Shown piece by piece: positions 147 through 7,163 of a DNA stretch of 14,230 nucleotides (its first letter is position 1; the number at the start of each line of letters is the position of its first letter). The position numbers and the translations under genes were made by a program. The notes under the pieces were generated by a model, which saw only the letters and a program-made list of their open reading frames with translations, had not been told where the DNA came from and did no database searches. Source of the DNA: a virus. Where the stretch lies: IMG/VR virus record IMGVR_UViG_3300012971_000145; one strand, given 5' to 3'.

Positions 147-376
147 ACAAGATGGAACTGGCGGGACGGTTCGGGGCACTGGCCAAAATCCTCAGCGAAA
201 CCCGCAGCATGATGGAGGATTACAGCCAGTACCTCGACAGCGACGTGGACCGGAAGGCGGTGCGCTCGATGCTCACCGACCTCACCTGGGCGGTTGAGAA
301 CTGCACGGTGATAAGTTTGCACCAACAGGGCAAGAACCTGGAAGACACGATGGGGCAGGATTCTCATGGCGCTTGA
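143..376 (+). CDS. hypothetical protein, 77 aa
   Basis: ATG 143 overlaps the upstream stop (ATGA). The ORF is 77 aa and its codon usage matches the neighbours. Confidence 0.5.
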   Translation: MNKMELAGRFGALAKILSETRSMMEDYSQYLDSDVDRKAVRSMLTDLTWAVENCTVISLHQQGKNLEDTMGQDSHGA

Positions 377-761
377 TCGCTTCGTCACCTGGGTGGACGA
401 GAAGCCCACCGACGAACAGTTGTTGTTCGTCCTTGAGGATTTTCTAGGGGGAGTCGGGGAGATAACCAATGACCCGACGAACGAGGGCCGTCCCTGGTGG
501 ACCATAAAGTTGCCGGGGAAGCCCTCCCACCCCCTGCGTCGGGCCTTCCAGATCGAAGGGCCGATGGTTCACGAAGAGCGCTGGTTCGAGGTCTACGTTG
601 CCGACGACCATATTGATGTGATGACGCGATTGGGTGACGCCTTTACCAACGCCCTGGCCGACAAGTTTGCCGAAGTGGTGTGCCGAGCCTGGAGAGCGAA
701 AAGTGGACTCCCCTCCGATCCCGACCCCGAACCCGATCCCAACGACTCCTGTTCCGTATAA
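366..761 (+). CDS. hypothetical protein, 131 aa, acidic DPDPEPDP tail
   Basis: ATG 366 is preceded by GGCAGGA 6 nt upstream. It overlaps the previous stop (374-376). Stop is TAA 759-761. Confidence 0.6.
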   Translation: MALDRFVTWVDEKPTDEQLLFVLEDFLGGVGEITNDPTNEGRPWWTIKLPGKPSHPLRRAFQIEGPMVHEERWFEVYVADDHIDVMTRLGDAFTNALADKFAEVVCRAWRAKSGLPSDPDPEPDPNDSCSV

Positions 762-789
762 GGGCCAACTGTTTGAGTCAACAGGGGTA

Positions 790-1191
790 TTGCGCTATAA
801 CATCAAGGACGGTTACGGGTATCGCTTGGTGGTGGAGATCGACAAGGCCATCGTGGATTATTACCGTGCCCTCATCCCGCCCTGGAAGGGCAAGATCAAC
901 CGCCAGATGTACGCCCCGCATATTTCTGTGGTGCGCAACGAAGTGCCGGCCAACCTGGATGCCTGGGCCAAGTATGAGGGCGAGGAAATCAAGTTCCTTT
1001 ACAGCAACCACATTTATCACGGCACGGTCTACTGGTGGCTCAACGCTTTCTGTACCCGCCTGGAGGACATTCGCCTGGAACTTGGGCTGCCGGTATCAAG
1101 TCAATTCACACGGCCCCCTGAAGGTTTCGTGAAGTGTTTTCACATCACTATCGGCAACATGAAGGAGCAGGAGCATGGATGCAAGGAATAA
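790..1191 (+). CDS. 2H phosphoesterase superfamily protein (LigT / 2',5'-RNA ligase / cyclic phosphodiesterase-like)
   Basis: Two H-x-[ST]-x motifs, 'APHISVV' and 'CFHITIG', lie about 76 aa apart. That is the diagnostic spacing of the 2H fold. I place the start at TTG 790 behind AGGGGT. The ORF track's 634 start would add a Pro-rich extension that reads through the previous gene in another frame. Stop is TAA 1189-1191. Confidence 0.7.
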   Translation: MRYNIKDGYGYRLVVEIDKAIVDYYRALIPPWKGKINRQMYAPHISVVRNEVPANLDAWAKYEGEEIKFLYSNHIYHGTVYWWLNAFCTRLEDIRLELGLPVSSQFTRPPEGFVKCFHITIGNMKEQEHGCKE

Positions 1192-1435: not shown

Positions 1436-1451
1436 CCTGGCCTTTCCTTTT
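1421..1451. terminator. bidirectional rho-independent terminator between convergent genes
   Basis: The hairpin is AAAAA-GGCCAGG-gttga-CCTGGCC-TTTCCTTTT (stem 1424-1430/1436-1442). An A-run lies upstream and a T-run downstream. The stop codons of both convergent genes fall inside it. Confidence 0.6.
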
Positions 1452-2028
1452 AACGGCGATTGCGGAATCGCTCGTAGAAGCGTTGAAACTCCTTGAACTC
1501 CTGGTAATCACGGAATGTGAAGGGGTACACATAGGGCCGAGAGCCGAAGGCCGGGTAGTTATACCCGTATGGCGCAGGGCCGTCGAAGCCGTAGAAGTAG
1601 CCGAGTTCCGGGGGAGGAGGCGGCACGCCGACCGGCAGGGTGATCCATCGCCACCCCTGACGGGTCATCCGCCAGTAGCCGTTGATGGCCGGCACAGGAA
1701 AGCCTCCGGTGGCCGGTTGGATGTTGCTCTGGGGCGGCGTGGGCAGAAAGGGCATCGGCGGCAGCGGCGGGATGGTGTGAACGTCGTCAGCCGGCGGCAT
1801 TGGCGGGACCGGCGGGGTCATCTGGGCCGGCGTTCTTGATTCGGTGGTTCTGGGCTTGGTCGGGGTGGGGGGAATTTCCTCCACCACACGGCGGATGGTC
1901 CGCCGGATTGTGTTCAGCGTGTCGTTGGCCCGCTGGCGTAGTTCTTCCTGGCAGAACACCGTATCCGGCGGCGTCGGCAGGTCAACAGGCGCAAAAAGGG
2001 CCACGGTCGTCAATAGAGTCGATAGCAT
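1450..2028 (-). CDS. secreted proline-rich / Tyr-Phe-rich protein, 192 aa; the only minus-strand gene in the window
   Basis: The minus-strand ATG (revcomp 2026-2028) lies 4 nt after a perfect AGGAGG (revcomp of 2033-2038). The N-terminus 'MLSTLLTTVALFAPV' is signal-peptide-like. The protein has PPxP tracts and an aromatic C-terminus 'YFYGFDGPAPYGYNYPAFGSRPYVYPF'. Confidence 0.65.
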   Translation of the reverse strand: MLSTLLTTVALFAPVDLPTPPDTVFCQEELRQRANDTLNTIRRTIRRVVEEIPPTPTKPRTTESRTPAQMTPPVPPMPPADDVHTIPPLPPMPFLPTPPQSNIQPATGGFPVPAINGYWRMTRQGWRWITLPVGVPPPPPELGYFYGFDGPAPYGYNYPAFGSRPYVYPFTFRDYQEFKEFQRFYERFRNRR

Positions 2029-2583: not shown

Positions 2584-2886
2584 ATGGCTGCGGCCAAACA
2601 GGTTATTGAGTCCGAGGAGAAGCCGGTGGAGCGGAACGCCTTGAAGGAGGCCATCGTCACGGTCCTGAAGGCGGGGCTGGGCCTGGAACTGCGCACGCCC
2701 CTGGCCGTTTACCCCACGGACGGCAGCTACATGGTCAGCTTCTTGTTTTTCGACGGGGAGCCGATCCCGACCGGCCTCAGCCTTGAACAGCGCAACCGGG
2801 TGAAGAAGGAACAGGAGATGGATGAGTATTTCGACTCTCCTGAAGAGGCGGCGGAATTATTTTTGAAGCTCAAGGAGCAACGATGA
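2584..2886 (+). CDS. hypothetical protein, 100 aa
   Basis: ATG 2584 is immediately preceded by GGGAGGG. The track's ATG 2563 lies inside the upstream gene. Confidence 0.6.
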   Translation: MAAAKQVIESEEKPVERNALKEAIVTVLKAGLGLELRTPLAVYPTDGSYMVSFLFFDGEPIPTGLSLEQRNRVKKEQEMDEYFDSPEEAAELFLKLKEQR

Positions 2887-3362
2887 AACCCAAGATATGC
2901 AGCCACCGGGCGGCTGCGGAATTCCTGCACGACAACCCGAAGACACACGACGTTATTTTGATCGTCAACAACGGCACGAGGTATGACAACGAGGACCACC
3001 TGAGCGCCATCCGGCGAAACGCCAACCGGGTCTGTGAGTTGATGTTTGACGACATCGAGTTCCACCGTGACAACCACAGGATGGTGGACGAGTCGCAGGT
3101 TCAGGAGGCGATCCATTTCGCCGCCGGCAAGGACAACCTCGTTGTCACCTGCACGGCGGGCATGGGCCGCAGTGCGGCCTTGGCATACGTCGTGGCTTGC
3201 TCTAAAATGGACCCTGCCGAGGCGGTGACGATTTTGGACCCGGATCGCCACACTCCGAATGAGAAAGTGATTTTCCTGGGCAACCGGCTGGTGGACGCGC
3301 CCACTCTTTTGGAGTGTTACGCCCGATTTAAGGACCAGATGTGCCTGCGATACAAATTCTAG
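2883..3362 (+). CDS. Cys-based phosphatase (PTP / dual-specificity phosphatase superfamily, CX5R P-loop)
   Basis: The start shows ATGA coupling. 'VVTCTAGMGRSAALAY' matches the (V/H)Cx2Gx2R(S/T) catalytic loop of cysteine phosphatases. It sits about two-thirds of the way along a 159-aa protein, as in DSP folds. Confidence 0.65.
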   Translation: MKPKICSHRAAAEFLHDNPKTHDVILIVNNGTRYDNEDHLSAIRRNANRVCELMFDDIEFHRDNHRMVDESQVQEAIHFAAGKDNLVVTCTAGMGRSAALAYVVACSKMDPAEAVTILDPDRHTPNEKVIFLGNRLVDAPTLLECYARFKDQMCLRYKF

Positions 3363-4959: not shown

Positions 4960-5414
4960 GCGACGACATCAAGGTGTACCAGCGGGGGGAAAGCCCCCAG
5001 GAGAAACCCTATTTCGAGGCGTTGCTCGCCGCCCTCCCGGAAGGGTGGGCGGTGACGGAGGGGCCGTATTGTCCGGGCAAGGAGGGTCATCTCACCTACA
5101 AGGCGGTCAGCGCCCAGGGCGGGCAGTATCGGATCGCGCATGTTCGGGACGGCGACTTTGCCGTTACCCTGGAGCCGGCCAAAATCGACCATAATTGGTT
5201 GGCGCAGCAACTCGGAGCCGAGATCGTTGGCAAGGTAGAAGGGCCAATTCACGGCATGGCCGGAGTCGCTAATCTGACCCGGCAATATCAACAACGCATG
5301 AAGGAGAAACGAGATGCTGCCGACCCAGAAGTGGATACTGGCCAAGGTGATCTCCGGGGGCCAGACGGGGGCGGACCAGGCGGGCCTACGGGCCGCACGG
5401 GCGATGGGCATTGA
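4956..5414 (+). CDS. hypothetical protein, 152 aa; the 3' 101 nt overlap the next gene
   Basis: ATGA coupling at 4956. The Gly-rich tail 'GPDGGGPGGPTGRTGDGH' lies wholly inside the next gene's start region. Confidence 0.45.
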   Translation: MSDDIKVYQRGESPQEKPYFEALLAALPEGWAVTEGPYCPGKEGHLTYKAVSAQGGQYRIAHVRDGDFAVTLEPAKIDHNWLAQQLGAEIVGKVEGPIHGMAGVANLTRQYQQRMKEKRDAADPEVDTGQGDLRGPDGGGPGGPTGRTGDGH

Positions 5415-5829
5415 AACCGGCGGCTGGGTGCCTTTCGGCTGTGTCACCGAGGACGGCCCCAATCCAGCGCTCCTCAAGGAGTACGATCTCAAGGAGATGG
5501 ATAGCGACAAATACCCGCCCCGCACGGAGGCCAACGTGCGGGATTCGGACGGCACTATGCGTTTCGCCGCTAACTTCGCCACCGCCGGTGAACGCTGCAC
5601 CCTGAAGGCGATCAAGTGGTTCAATAAACCATATTTCGACGTGGACTGGAACAACCCGCCGTCCATCCAACAGGCGGTGGAGTGGATCGTCGCCAACAAA
5701 GTGAAAACGCTCAACGTCGCCGGCAACCGGGAAAGTACCAACCCAGGCATCGGCAGCTTCGTGGAACAATATTTGGTCCAGGTGTTCGCCCAGGTCATAC
5801 TTAAACCCGTGCGGAGTGCGACGAAATGA
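5314..5829 (+). CDS. SLOG-superfamily protein of the 'molybdenum-cofactor-carrier'/YpsA-like family
   Basis: AAGGAG lies 9 nt before ATG 5314. The N-terminal 'ISGGQTGADQAGL' P-loop-like motif is followed by 'GGWVPFG..EDG.NP...Y.L.E......Y..RT..NV.DSDGT'. This is the characteristic MoCo-carrier/YpsA pattern. Confidence 0.75.
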   Translation: MLPTQKWILAKVISGGQTGADQAGLRAARAMGIETGGWVPFGCVTEDGPNPALLKEYDLKEMDSDKYPPRTEANVRDSDGTMRFAANFATAGERCTLKAIKWFNKPYFDVDWNNPPSIQQAVEWIVANKVKTLNVAGNRESTNPGIGSFVEQYLVQVFAQVILKPVRSATK

Positions 5830-6584
5830 TCGACTTTGAACGAGGCGCGAAAACCACCGGCTCGAAGTTCTACTTCCTCACCGGCGACGAGGCCGTGATG
5901 GAGTGGAACCTCATCAACTACATGATCCGCTTCCACCGCCACAAGGGCTACCAGTTCGTGCTGCCGCCCTTTTTGGTAAATAAGAAAGTGGGCGAGATGG
6001 CCGGCATTCTCCCTCGTTTCGAGGGCGACTACTACCAGACCAAGGATGGCCTCATGCTGATCCCGACCGCCGAGACGCCCCTGGTCGGGATGCACGCCAA
6101 TGAAATCTTCAAGGAGGAAGAGCTTCCCCGCCGCTACGTCGCCTACTCCCCCTGCTTCCGCAAGGAGGCTGGGGCCTACGGTGCCAAGGACAAGGGCTAC
6201 CGCCGGGTCCATCAGTTCAATAAGGTCGAATTGTTTACCATCTGCACGCCGGACTCGTCGGAGTTTTACCACAACCAGATGGTGGACGACGTGTGCGAAC
6301 TGCTCAAGAATCTCAACGTCGAACATCGCAAGGTAGTGCTGGACGAAAAGGACCGTTCGCCCGTTTCCAATCAGACCATCGACATCGAAGTGCTGGTCGG
6401 CAAGGAGTGGTTGGAGGTATCTTCTATTTCCAACACCGGCGACAACCAGAGCCGGGTCGCCCAGGTCCGTTATAAGCCAAAGGACGGCAAGAAGAATGTC
6501 AAGTGTCACTTGCTCAACGGTTCGGGCGTTGCCCTCCCCCGGCTGATGCTCGCCCTGGCTGAGCGCATCAACGAGTGGAAATAA
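5826..6584 (+). CDS. seryl-tRNA-synthetase-like protein, catalytic core only (class II aaRS motifs 1-3), lacking the N-terminal coiled-coil arm
   Basis: ATGA coupling to the SLOG gene. It aligns to bacterial SerRS from the start of the catalytic domain onward. Matches are 'LIPTAETPL', 'YSPCFRKEAGAYGAKDKGYRRVHQFNKVEL', 'DIEVLVGKEWLEVSSISN' and the motif-3 'LNGSGVALPRLMLALAE'. The protein is only 252 aa. Confidence 0.85.
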   Translation: MIDFERGAKTTGSKFYFLTGDEAVMEWNLINYMIRFHRHKGYQFVLPPFLVNKKVGEMAGILPRFEGDYYQTKDGLMLIPTAETPLVGMHANEIFKEEELPRRYVAYSPCFRKEAGAYGAKDKGYRRVHQFNKVELFTICTPDSSEFYHNQMVDDVCELLKNLNVEHRKVVLDEKDRSPVSNQTIDIEVLVGKEWLEVSSISNTGDNQSRVAQVRYKPKDGKKNVKCHLLNGSGVALPRLMLALAERINEWK

Positions 6585-6585
6585 C

Positions 6586-6921
6586 ATGGCTGTTCACAAA
6601 GGCTGGGACTTCTTCAGCGCCGACCCCGGCAAAGTTGAAAAATGCGAATGCCGGGTGTGCGGCGAAACCTGCGACGTGAAACGTAATGTCATGGGTGCGA
6701 CCGGCTACGCCGAGTCCCTGGCCGGGATGAAGCACCTGCATGACAACTTCGTGTGCCCCCACGCCCAGGAAGACTGGCACAAGCAAATGCGTTCCTTGCG
6801 CATGGAACAGGAAAATACCAAAAGCGCCGCCCTCAAGGAGCTTTTGGAAGCAGAAATTACGCAAATCTACGTCAACAAGAAAACCACCGAGGGCTGGAAG
6901 CCCGACTGGAGAGATTTATGA
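6586..6921 (+). CDS. Cys/His-rich small protein, putative Zn-finger
   Basis: TAACATG coupling. 'CECRVCGETC' is followed by 'H..H...CPH'. It is 111 aa. Confidence 0.55.
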   Translation: MAVHKGWDFFSADPGKVEKCECRVCGETCDVKRNVMGATGYAESLAGMKHLHDNFVCPHAQEDWHKQMRSLRMEQENTKSAALKELLEAEITQIYVNKKTTEGWKPDWRDL

Positions 6922-7163
6922 TGATCGAAGTCTGCCCGGCCTTCACCCCGGATGATGCCCGGCAGCAGGCCCGTGCCGCTGGTTATATTGTGAACGACCG
7001 CCTGCAAGCCATTTCGATGGGAATTGGCATTGGCGAGATGGACCCCGGCTACATCCTCAAGGTGGAAAAGGGGGAGCAGGTGGCTCAGGCCGATAATATT
7101 CGGGAGCGCCCCGACCTGGAAGGGGTGTTTGACGACCTGATGGAGCAAGGAGGGGAGGAATGA
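6918..7163 (+). CDS. hypothetical acidic protein, 81 aa
   Basis: ATG 6918 overlaps the upstream TGA. TGGAGAG lies upstream. The track ORF 6753.. carries an implausible N-terminal extension. Confidence 0.5.
   Translation: MMIEVCPAFTPDDARQQARAAGYIVNDRLQAISMGIGIGEMDPGYILKVEKGEQVAQADNIRERPDLEGVFDDLMEQGGEE

Follow-up and report, generated by a model that had tools for sequence, protein, structure and literature searches.

The stretch of viral DNA considered here, 14,230 nucleotides of the IMG/VR record IMGVR_UViG_3300012971_000145 (the whole of which is called the window below), carries near its beginning a small gene whose product contains two short histidine motifs, and the question it raises is whether this gene encodes a genuine 2H phosphoesterase and, if so, on what substrate the enzyme would act. 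The initial annotation had placed a LigT-like 2H phosphoesterase at 790-1191 and had suggested either RNA repair or anti-defence as its role. The explanation that we favour, and to which we give somewhat better than even chances, is that positions 703-1191 encode a compact, standalone, metal-independent 2H phosphoesterase of a huge (jumbo-type) phage, predicted to heal the 2',3'-cyclic-phosphate ends of tRNA; the same role has already been predicted for jumbo-phage 2H domains by comparative genomics (PMC7824862, PMC9503650). The features of the gene on which the argument turns are as follows, with residues numbered from the GTG codon at 703.

703-1191, plus strand: predicted 2H phosphoesterase coding sequence, most likely complete; 162 residues, GTG start, TAA stop at 1189-1191.
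769-1164, plus strand: conserved 2H core (L23-K154), common to all family members in the family alignments; AlphaFold predicted local distance difference test score (pLDDT) mostly >90.
919-930, plus strand: motif 1, H73-I-S-V, at the start of predicted strand 73-80 and followed by the near-invariant R78.
1141-1152, plus strand: motif 2, H147-I-T-I, in predicted strand 146-152 and followed by G-N-x-K.
691-694, plus strand: GGAG, a putative Shine-Dalgarno-like motif read from the sequence, 8 nt 5' of GTG 703.

Frame +1 is open from 634 to 1191 without a stop codon, and its translation carries both HISV and HITI. The two histidines lie 74 residues apart, between the spacing of T4 Acb1 (69) and that of E. 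coli ThpR (82), so that the earlier statement that the motifs are correctly spaced holds. When the protein was shuffled 20,000 times, two motifs of the form H-hydrophobic-[ST]-hydrophobic arose in 0.045% of the shuffles, and with a spacing of 60-95 residues in 0.01%, which makes a chance origin of the pair unlikely. Conservation across the family is the stronger argument: among 141 diverse representatives, 34-54% identical to the window protein, H73 and the S/T at position 75 were each present in all 141, R78 in 140, H147 and the T/S at position 149 each in 139, N152 in 133 and K154 in 131. Read from these alignments, the 2H active-site signature is under strong purifying selection. A third match to the motif pattern, HGTV at residue 106, was not conserved across the family, and a search for an internal repeat between the two halves of the protein aligned, at the sequence level, only the four-residue motifs. 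These figures bear on the most sceptical reading of the locus, in which there would be no working enzyme and the motifs would be either a chance pair or the mark of a degenerate 2H-like binding scaffold. That the window protein falls below the Pfam gathering score and has no sequence match to solved structures speaks for such a reading, but with both histidines and both S/T residues essentially invariant at this level of divergence, and with so few shuffles reproducing the pair, we consider it very improbable indeed.

The interval 790-1191 given originally had the correct reading frame, contained both motifs and overlapped the conserved core, but its start had to be moved. The GTG codon at 703 is the more likely start as judged from homologues: the TTG at 790 would truncate the protein, because the stretch 'LFESxGxLRY', which lies upstream of that codon, is conserved in homologues, and the closest relatives of the window protein keep the N-terminal stretch 'PVPYKG(E/Q)LFES'. 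In addition, a public protein that is 99% identical (P0001, 162 residues) was called from the GTG 703 start on three metagenomic contigs. With this start, the coding sequence shares 59 nt with the preceding unknown open reading frame (ORF) at 366-761, and the small downstream ORF at 1175-1435 overlaps it by 17 nt. A separate arrangement of the same region was seen in a 179-residue protein from NCBI (P0004), in which the 2H core, from 'LFES' on, follows in frame after approximately the first 47 residues of the upstream ORF (MALDRFVTW...RPWW); relative to window positions 366-1191, what is left of that ORF has apparently been deleted, as has the proline-rich N-terminus.

An AlphaFold2 model built from an alignment of 57 sequences (pLDDT 92.4, predicted template modelling score 0.81) has a duplicated beta-beta-alpha-beta arrangement, in the order E-E-H-E(H73) / E-E-H-E(H147), in which the last strand of each repeat begins with a histidine motif. 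The initial annotation had held that a predicted fold lacking the two-lobed 2H architecture would count against its assignment; the fold as modelled is two-lobed, alpha+beta and duplicated, with one H-x-T/S motif strand in each lobe. The best structural matches of the model were 2H enzymes throughout, with the rotavirus VP3 domain, the phosphodiesterase acting on ADP-ribose 1'',2''-cyclic phosphate (Appr>p) and ASCC1 somewhat lower. Foldseek gave no significant match against the PDB and only weak matches against BFVD, where a phage protein named 2H-SAK was hit with an E-value of 0.058 and a probability of 0.99. Comparison of the protein and two family profiles with all PDB chains by sequence returned nothing above chance level, the matches being to uS10, to a C2 domain and to a tRNA methyltransferase. 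As modelled, the window protein is a real but divergent, minimal 2H domain with a single helix per lobe. Most members of the family end 8-15 residues past motif 2, and, to go by nothing more than the order of its secondary-structure elements, two long strands at the N-terminus may take the place of those that canonical 2H enzymes have at the C-terminus.

At the level of sequence profiles, the sole Pfam match of the window protein was PF22547, the 2H-SAK family (E-value 7e-4, 20.2 bits), and it covered the C-terminal half only. The same profile was matched at E<0.01 by 42 of the 57 homologues; the scores of homologues were 22.5-30.2 bits, and several divergent members gave no match. In the better-scoring homologues (25-30 bits) positions ~26-121 of the 124 in the profile were covered, and the match therefore takes in both motifs; five homologues had a precomputed match, one at 30.2 bits and four at 25.2-26.9 bits (threshold 27). 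Two other profiles, PF13563 and TIGR02258 (RNA 2',3'-cyclic phosphodiesterase), were matched by four homologues (best E-value 0.0012) and five homologues (best E-value 0.015), respectively, and neither was matched by the window protein itself. All 57 members matched PHROG 12204 ('unknown function') and no other PHROG. Judged by these scores, the family sits at the margin of Pfam 2H-SAK and looks like a sister or peripheral family. The assignment to the 2H (LigT-like) phosphoesterases made in the initial annotation was thus borne out by the near-invariant motifs, by the predicted duplicated fold with 2H enzymes as its best structural matches, and by the 2H-SAK profile matches of most homologues.

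The family comprises ~1,005 clusters at 50% identity (E-value <=1e-3), and its members are almost always standalone proteins of 120-145 residues; fusions to other domains were almost absent, in that ~8 of the 150 best representatives exceeded 175 residues and the extensions inspected were N-terminal. A tblastn search of 50,697 phage records found the family in 23, all but one of them genomes of 337-595 kb. The named carriers include Bacillus phage G (gp116), Agrobacterium phage Atu_ph07, Sinorhizobium phage Phosso, RaK2-like Klebsiella phages and the Salmonella phages Munch and 7t3. IMG/VR yielded 74 loci, 22 of them on contigs >200 kb, and among prokaryotes (one genome per species, 185,579 species) there were three matches only, all on metagenome-assembled contigs. 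The family is thus confined essentially to huge-phage contigs. The window gave no megablast match to deposited phages; it contains three tRNA genes, a seryl-tRNA-synthetase (SerRS) catalytic core, a GluRS-type anticodon-binding domain and a cpYpsA gene, and a huge phage is the most plausible genome for it to have come from.

The genes that accompany the family in other elements are what bear on its substrate. Loci were dereplicated to 53 groups in which the 2H proteins share <90% identity, and the ORFs within six genes were clustered; the resulting neighbour counts are lower bounds, because the crude ORF caller missed some genuine genes where loci were GC-rich. More often than any other neighbour, in 10 of the 53 groups, a CCA-adding enzyme with a PolyA_pol head, an RNA-binding region and an HD domain was found; in seven groups its gene shares the strand of the 2H gene and lies upstream of it by no more than two genes. 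In locus L011 the two genes overlap by 4 nt (CCA-adding enzyme 6682-8001, 2H 7998-8405), and in L017 three genes overlap in series, namely the CCA-adding enzyme (6427-7719), a cREC or 'cyclic-phosphate processing receiver' domain protein (7694-8035) and the 2H protein (8004-8423). A cREC gene stands directly upstream of the 2H gene in three groups. A Pfam scan of 243 neighbour proteins of at least 90 residues, encoded within three genes of the 2H gene, found PolyA_pol six times, cREC three times, RNA_ligase twice, and RlaP, Thg1, a GluRS/GlnRS-type and a TrpRS/TyrRS-type tRNA synthetase, EF-Ts, YqeY, NAPRTase and NUDIX once each; no HAD phosphatase, the partner of SAK type, was present among the 25 commonest Pfam families of each half of this set.

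A second association is with tRNA genes, which are present in 21 of the 53 loci and in 13 are no more than 1 kb from the 2H gene. In nine loci the 2H gene is embedded in a tRNA array, flanked within 2 kb by tRNA genes on either side, in several of them with gaps of only tens of nucleotides, and none of the 194 tRNA genes in the loci lies on the strand opposite to the 2H gene. From the tRNA numbers published for genomes of the huge-phage type (~18-22 tRNA genes per genome; PMC7824862) we estimate that chance would place only a few per cent of genes, at most about 5%, as close as 1 kb to a tRNA gene. The tRNA-adjacent loci and those with a CCA-adding enzyme are almost disjoint sets, and therefore nearly half of the loci show one link or the other. 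The linkage of the 2H gene to tRNA 3'-end enzymes and tRNA genes is recurrent and probably co-translated.

Some further properties of these tRNA genes were recorded. At least 136 of the 194 lack an encoded 3' CCA by a simple string check that over-counts the presence of CCA, and two of the three tRNA genes in the window also lack it, the tRNA-Val gene being ambiguous; the absence of an encoded CCA fits dependence on a CCA-adding enzyme. Three arrays that hold the 2H gene include tRNA genes with the CTA (amber-reading) anticodon (L053, 12733-12806; L055, 5679-5753; L062, 8923-8996), and these may indicate stop-codon recoding in the phages concerned. A tmRNA gene (8982-9341) lies just downstream of the 2H gene in L053, and ARAGORN reported tRNA-like genes with four-base anticodons or long insertions in L031 (5692-5785), L077 (3081-3155) and L084 (8676-8770 and 13888-13984). 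The idea that the enzyme cleans up after self-cleaving ribozymes in tRNA arrays was considered and found to be unsupported; it was dropped because Rfam, at the gathering threshold, found nothing but tRNAs in the window and in eight tRNA-rich loci.

On the reading that we favour, the two histidines would serve as general acid and general base on a 2',3'-cyclic phosphate at an RNA 3' end, chiefly that of a tRNA cut by metal-independent ribonucleases of the host. The ring would be opened to a monoester, presumably a 2'-phosphate as in the characterised 2H RNA cyclic phosphodiesterases. With ThpR, the CPD domain of Trl1 and CNPase, the product is a 2'-phosphate with a free 3'-OH. The phosphate might then be removed by the cREC protein or by the HD domain of the CCA-adding enzyme, both of which occur in the gene strings of relatives; the acceptor end would be rebuilt by the CCA-adding enzyme, and in other relatives the break would be resealed by an RNA ligase. 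The 2H enzyme would thereby form part of a phage translation-maintenance kit, beside the phage's own tRNAs and genes resembling those of aminoacyl-tRNA synthetases. For the window protein itself this proposal is carried over from its relatives, because it is 57-65% identical to members that have a CCA-adding enzyme no more than two genes away (L011, L012, L015 and L037).

Several observations weigh against this explanation. The window protein scores under the PF22547 gathering score (20.2 against 27 bits), and hhalign against E. coli ThpR was not significant (2-4% probability). About half of the 53 loci have no tRNA-related neighbour, and the enrichment for tRNA genes was judged against a literature-based estimate of the chance level. 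In the window no RNA-repair partner is adjacent, the immediate neighbours of the 2H gene being unknown ORFs. The initial annotation had pointed to the element's own tRNAs as context; the three tRNA genes are real (Ala-UGC, Val-UAC and Ile-UAU, within 12992-14074), but they lie 11.8 kb from the 2H gene and lend the proposal little support. The enzymatic role of every member of the family is moreover a prediction. Finally, proximity to tRNA genes does not by itself tell the possible roles apart, because T4 Acb1, a 2H protein that acts against the cyclic-oligonucleotide-based anti-phage signalling system (CBASS), is also encoded ~1.4 kb from the T4 tRNA cluster.

This last point leads to the question of whether the protein could be an anti-defence nuclease like Acb1, which would hydrolyse CBASS cyclic di- or trinucleotides, the cyclic oligoadenylates of type III CRISPR systems, or 2'-5' species, and would so silence abortive-infection effectors. 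Acb1, too, is a phage 2H protein that is small, standalone and six-stranded and carries an HxT/HxT tetrad (PMC9117128), and the many conserved aromatic residues of the present family could stack bases. Against this, there is no sequence relationship between the two (hhalign against T4 gp57B gave 7.6% probability, and PHROG 12204 remains the only PHROG matched by the 57 members), and Acb1 continues for ~40 residues after motif 2, including a C-terminal lid that closes on the ligand (residues 145-152 in the FBB1 protein; PMC9117128), whereas most members of the present family stop soon after that motif. The recurrent overlapping gene strings, in addition, involve the CCA-adding enzyme and cREC, not anti-defence genes. 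It is because of these strings, together with the tRNA arrays of relatives, that healing of tRNA ends is favoured over an Acb1-like role, which we regard as unlikely without being negligible. The initial annotation had left both RNA repair and anti-defence as plausible; the conserved neighbourhoods lean towards repair of tRNA ends, and the alternative keeps the modest standing just given. A variant, which we think improbable, is that the compact family represents a second, sequence-unrelated lineage of immune-signal nucleases that lack the lid and are expressed early from tRNA-array transcripts, and not a healer of RNA ends at all; its specificity could be one that Acb1 does not have, perhaps for cyclic oligonucleotides with 2'-5' linkages or for signalling RNAs ending in a 2',3'-cyclic phosphate.

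The neighbour genes also bear on a role in the NAD-ADP-ribose network, in which the enzyme would open the Appr>p produced when KptA/Tpt1 or sirtuins clear 2'-phosphates, with a Macro domain acting next; a 2H-KptA-Macro pathway has been described for phages (PMC9503650). L006 has a Macro-domain gene (7195-7887) 1.2 kb downstream of its 2H gene, Bacillus phage G (L086) has an 'Appr-1-p processing' gene (8000-8479) 2.7 kb downstream of its homologue, gp116, and in L004 genes for RNA ligase, WGR and PARP proteins (6920-9243) come after the 2H gene; the single NAPRTase and NUDIX neighbours would also fit. Macro or PARP neighbours were nevertheless found in only two of the 53 loci and in phage G, compared with ten loci for the CCA-adding enzyme and 13 for tRNA genes, KptA/Tpt1 was absent from the 25 commonest neighbour families of each half of the set, and the window contains no Macro, PARP or related gene. 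We consequently consider such a role quite doubtful, and retain the healing of tRNA ends as the preferred explanation.

The initial annotation had also named a Cys-phosphatase, 1.7 kb downstream, as context for the enzyme. The ORF in question (2883-3362, plus strand) was not near the 2H gene in any of 81 other loci from other elements, so that a functional link between the two is unsupported. It encodes a CX5R loop (CTAGMGRS), gives a sub-threshold DSPc match (E-value 1e-4) and belongs to PHROG 5614, of unknown function. By tblastn, neither this ORF nor the DUF3307, cpYpsA and SerRS-core genes of the window were found near the 2H gene in loci of other elements, the exceptions among its neighbours being a gene like that of major vault protein (MVP), in L068, and an Anticodon_2-domain gene, in L029 and L030. 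One further feature lies just beyond the 2H gene:

1424-1451, strand not assigned: GC-rich hairpin GGCCAGG-GTTGA-CCTGGCC followed by the T-rich tail TTTCCTTTT, read from the sequence.

This hairpin sits at the end of the ORF at 1175-1435, between convergent ORFs, and it likely marks the end of the transcription unit holding the 2H gene; the assignment is a weak one, because the scan reports the hairpin on the minus strand only (1438-1423). The convergent ORF (1450-2028, minus strand) encodes a proline-rich product of 192 residues that is kept by public gene calls and gave no Pfam match.

Farther downstream, a 926-residue ORF (7381-10161, plus strand) contains the eukaryote-type MVP domains MVP_shoulder (E-value 1.4e-25) and Vault_3 (E-value 9e-11), which is unusual on a phage-like contig; the copy in L068 is 40% identical and lies ~6 kb downstream of the 2H gene. 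A 252-residue ORF (5826-6584, plus strand) encodes a SerRS catalytic core without the N-terminal tRNA-binding arm (positions 151-400 of 418 in TIGR00414, 261 bits, cut-off 301) and is directly downstream of the gene of the SLOG-family protein cpYpsA (5314-5829, plus strand). The ORF at 10619-11332 (plus strand) encodes a standalone GluRS-type anticodon-binding domain (Anticodon_2) fused to DUF2934, and a distant relative with 28% identity is encoded directly upstream of the 2H gene in L029 and L030 (~7589-7993).

If the proposed role is correct, huge phages would possess an enzyme dedicated to reopening 2',3'-cyclic phosphate ends, often encoded in a string with the CCA-adding enzyme and cREC or within a tRNA array. 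This would define a concrete three-step route, open to testing, by which tRNA 3' ends are restored after damage by ribonucleases of the host, and would give a function to PHROG 12204, whose roughly one thousand clusters are now annotated as 'hypothetical'. The general picture would be unchanged, because jumbo-phage 2H enzymes and tRNA repair have already been described from comparative genomics; what the analysis adds is that the CCA-cREC-2H and tRNA-array association of PHROG 12204 is quantified and testable.

Among known systems, the nearest by profile is PF22547 2H-SAK, the Swiss Army Knife RNA-repair 2H phosphoesterase domain (compared on the basis of the Pfam description and PMC7824862). 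Its profile length of 124 is close to the compact size of the present family, its match spans both H-x-T/S motifs in the better-scoring homologues, and its predicted context is likewise RNA repair; it differs in that scores lie around or under the threshold and that the family is catalogued apart, as PHROG 12204. With LigT/ThpR (E. coli ThpR, P. horikoshii 1vgj and the Deinococcus CPDase 5h7f) the family shares the two H-hydrophobic-T/S-hydrophobic motifs at a similar spacing and the proposed chemistry on 2',3'-cyclic phosphate ends of RNA. LigT/ThpR proteins have ~175-185 residues, whereas the core of the window family has 133, and the family differs further in its predicted single helix per lobe, its short end after motif 2 and its two long N-terminal strands; the sequence profiles of the two are unconnected. 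The phage Acb1 proteins (T4 gp57B and that of Erwinia phage FBB1, 7t27; anti-CBASS) are similar as small standalone 2H proteins with the HxT/HxT tetrad and a six-stranded core, but the present family lacks their ~40-residue C-terminal segment with its lid, shows no detected sequence relationship to them, and has relatives in CCA/cREC gene strings and tRNA arrays. A further comparison is with the jumbo-phage 2H domains catalogued by Iyer, Aravind and colleagues (PMC7824862, PMC9503650), with which the family shares the superfamily, the type of host genome and the predicted part in tRNA repair, namely the clearing of 2',3'-cyclic phosphates alongside ligases, cREC and CCA-adding enzymes. Those surveys pool 2H domains, whereas here one family of 120-145 residues is delimited and its embedding among tRNA genes and CCA-adding enzymes is quantified. 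The family is thus a further case, divergent and compact, of the jumbo-phage 2H enzymes already described.
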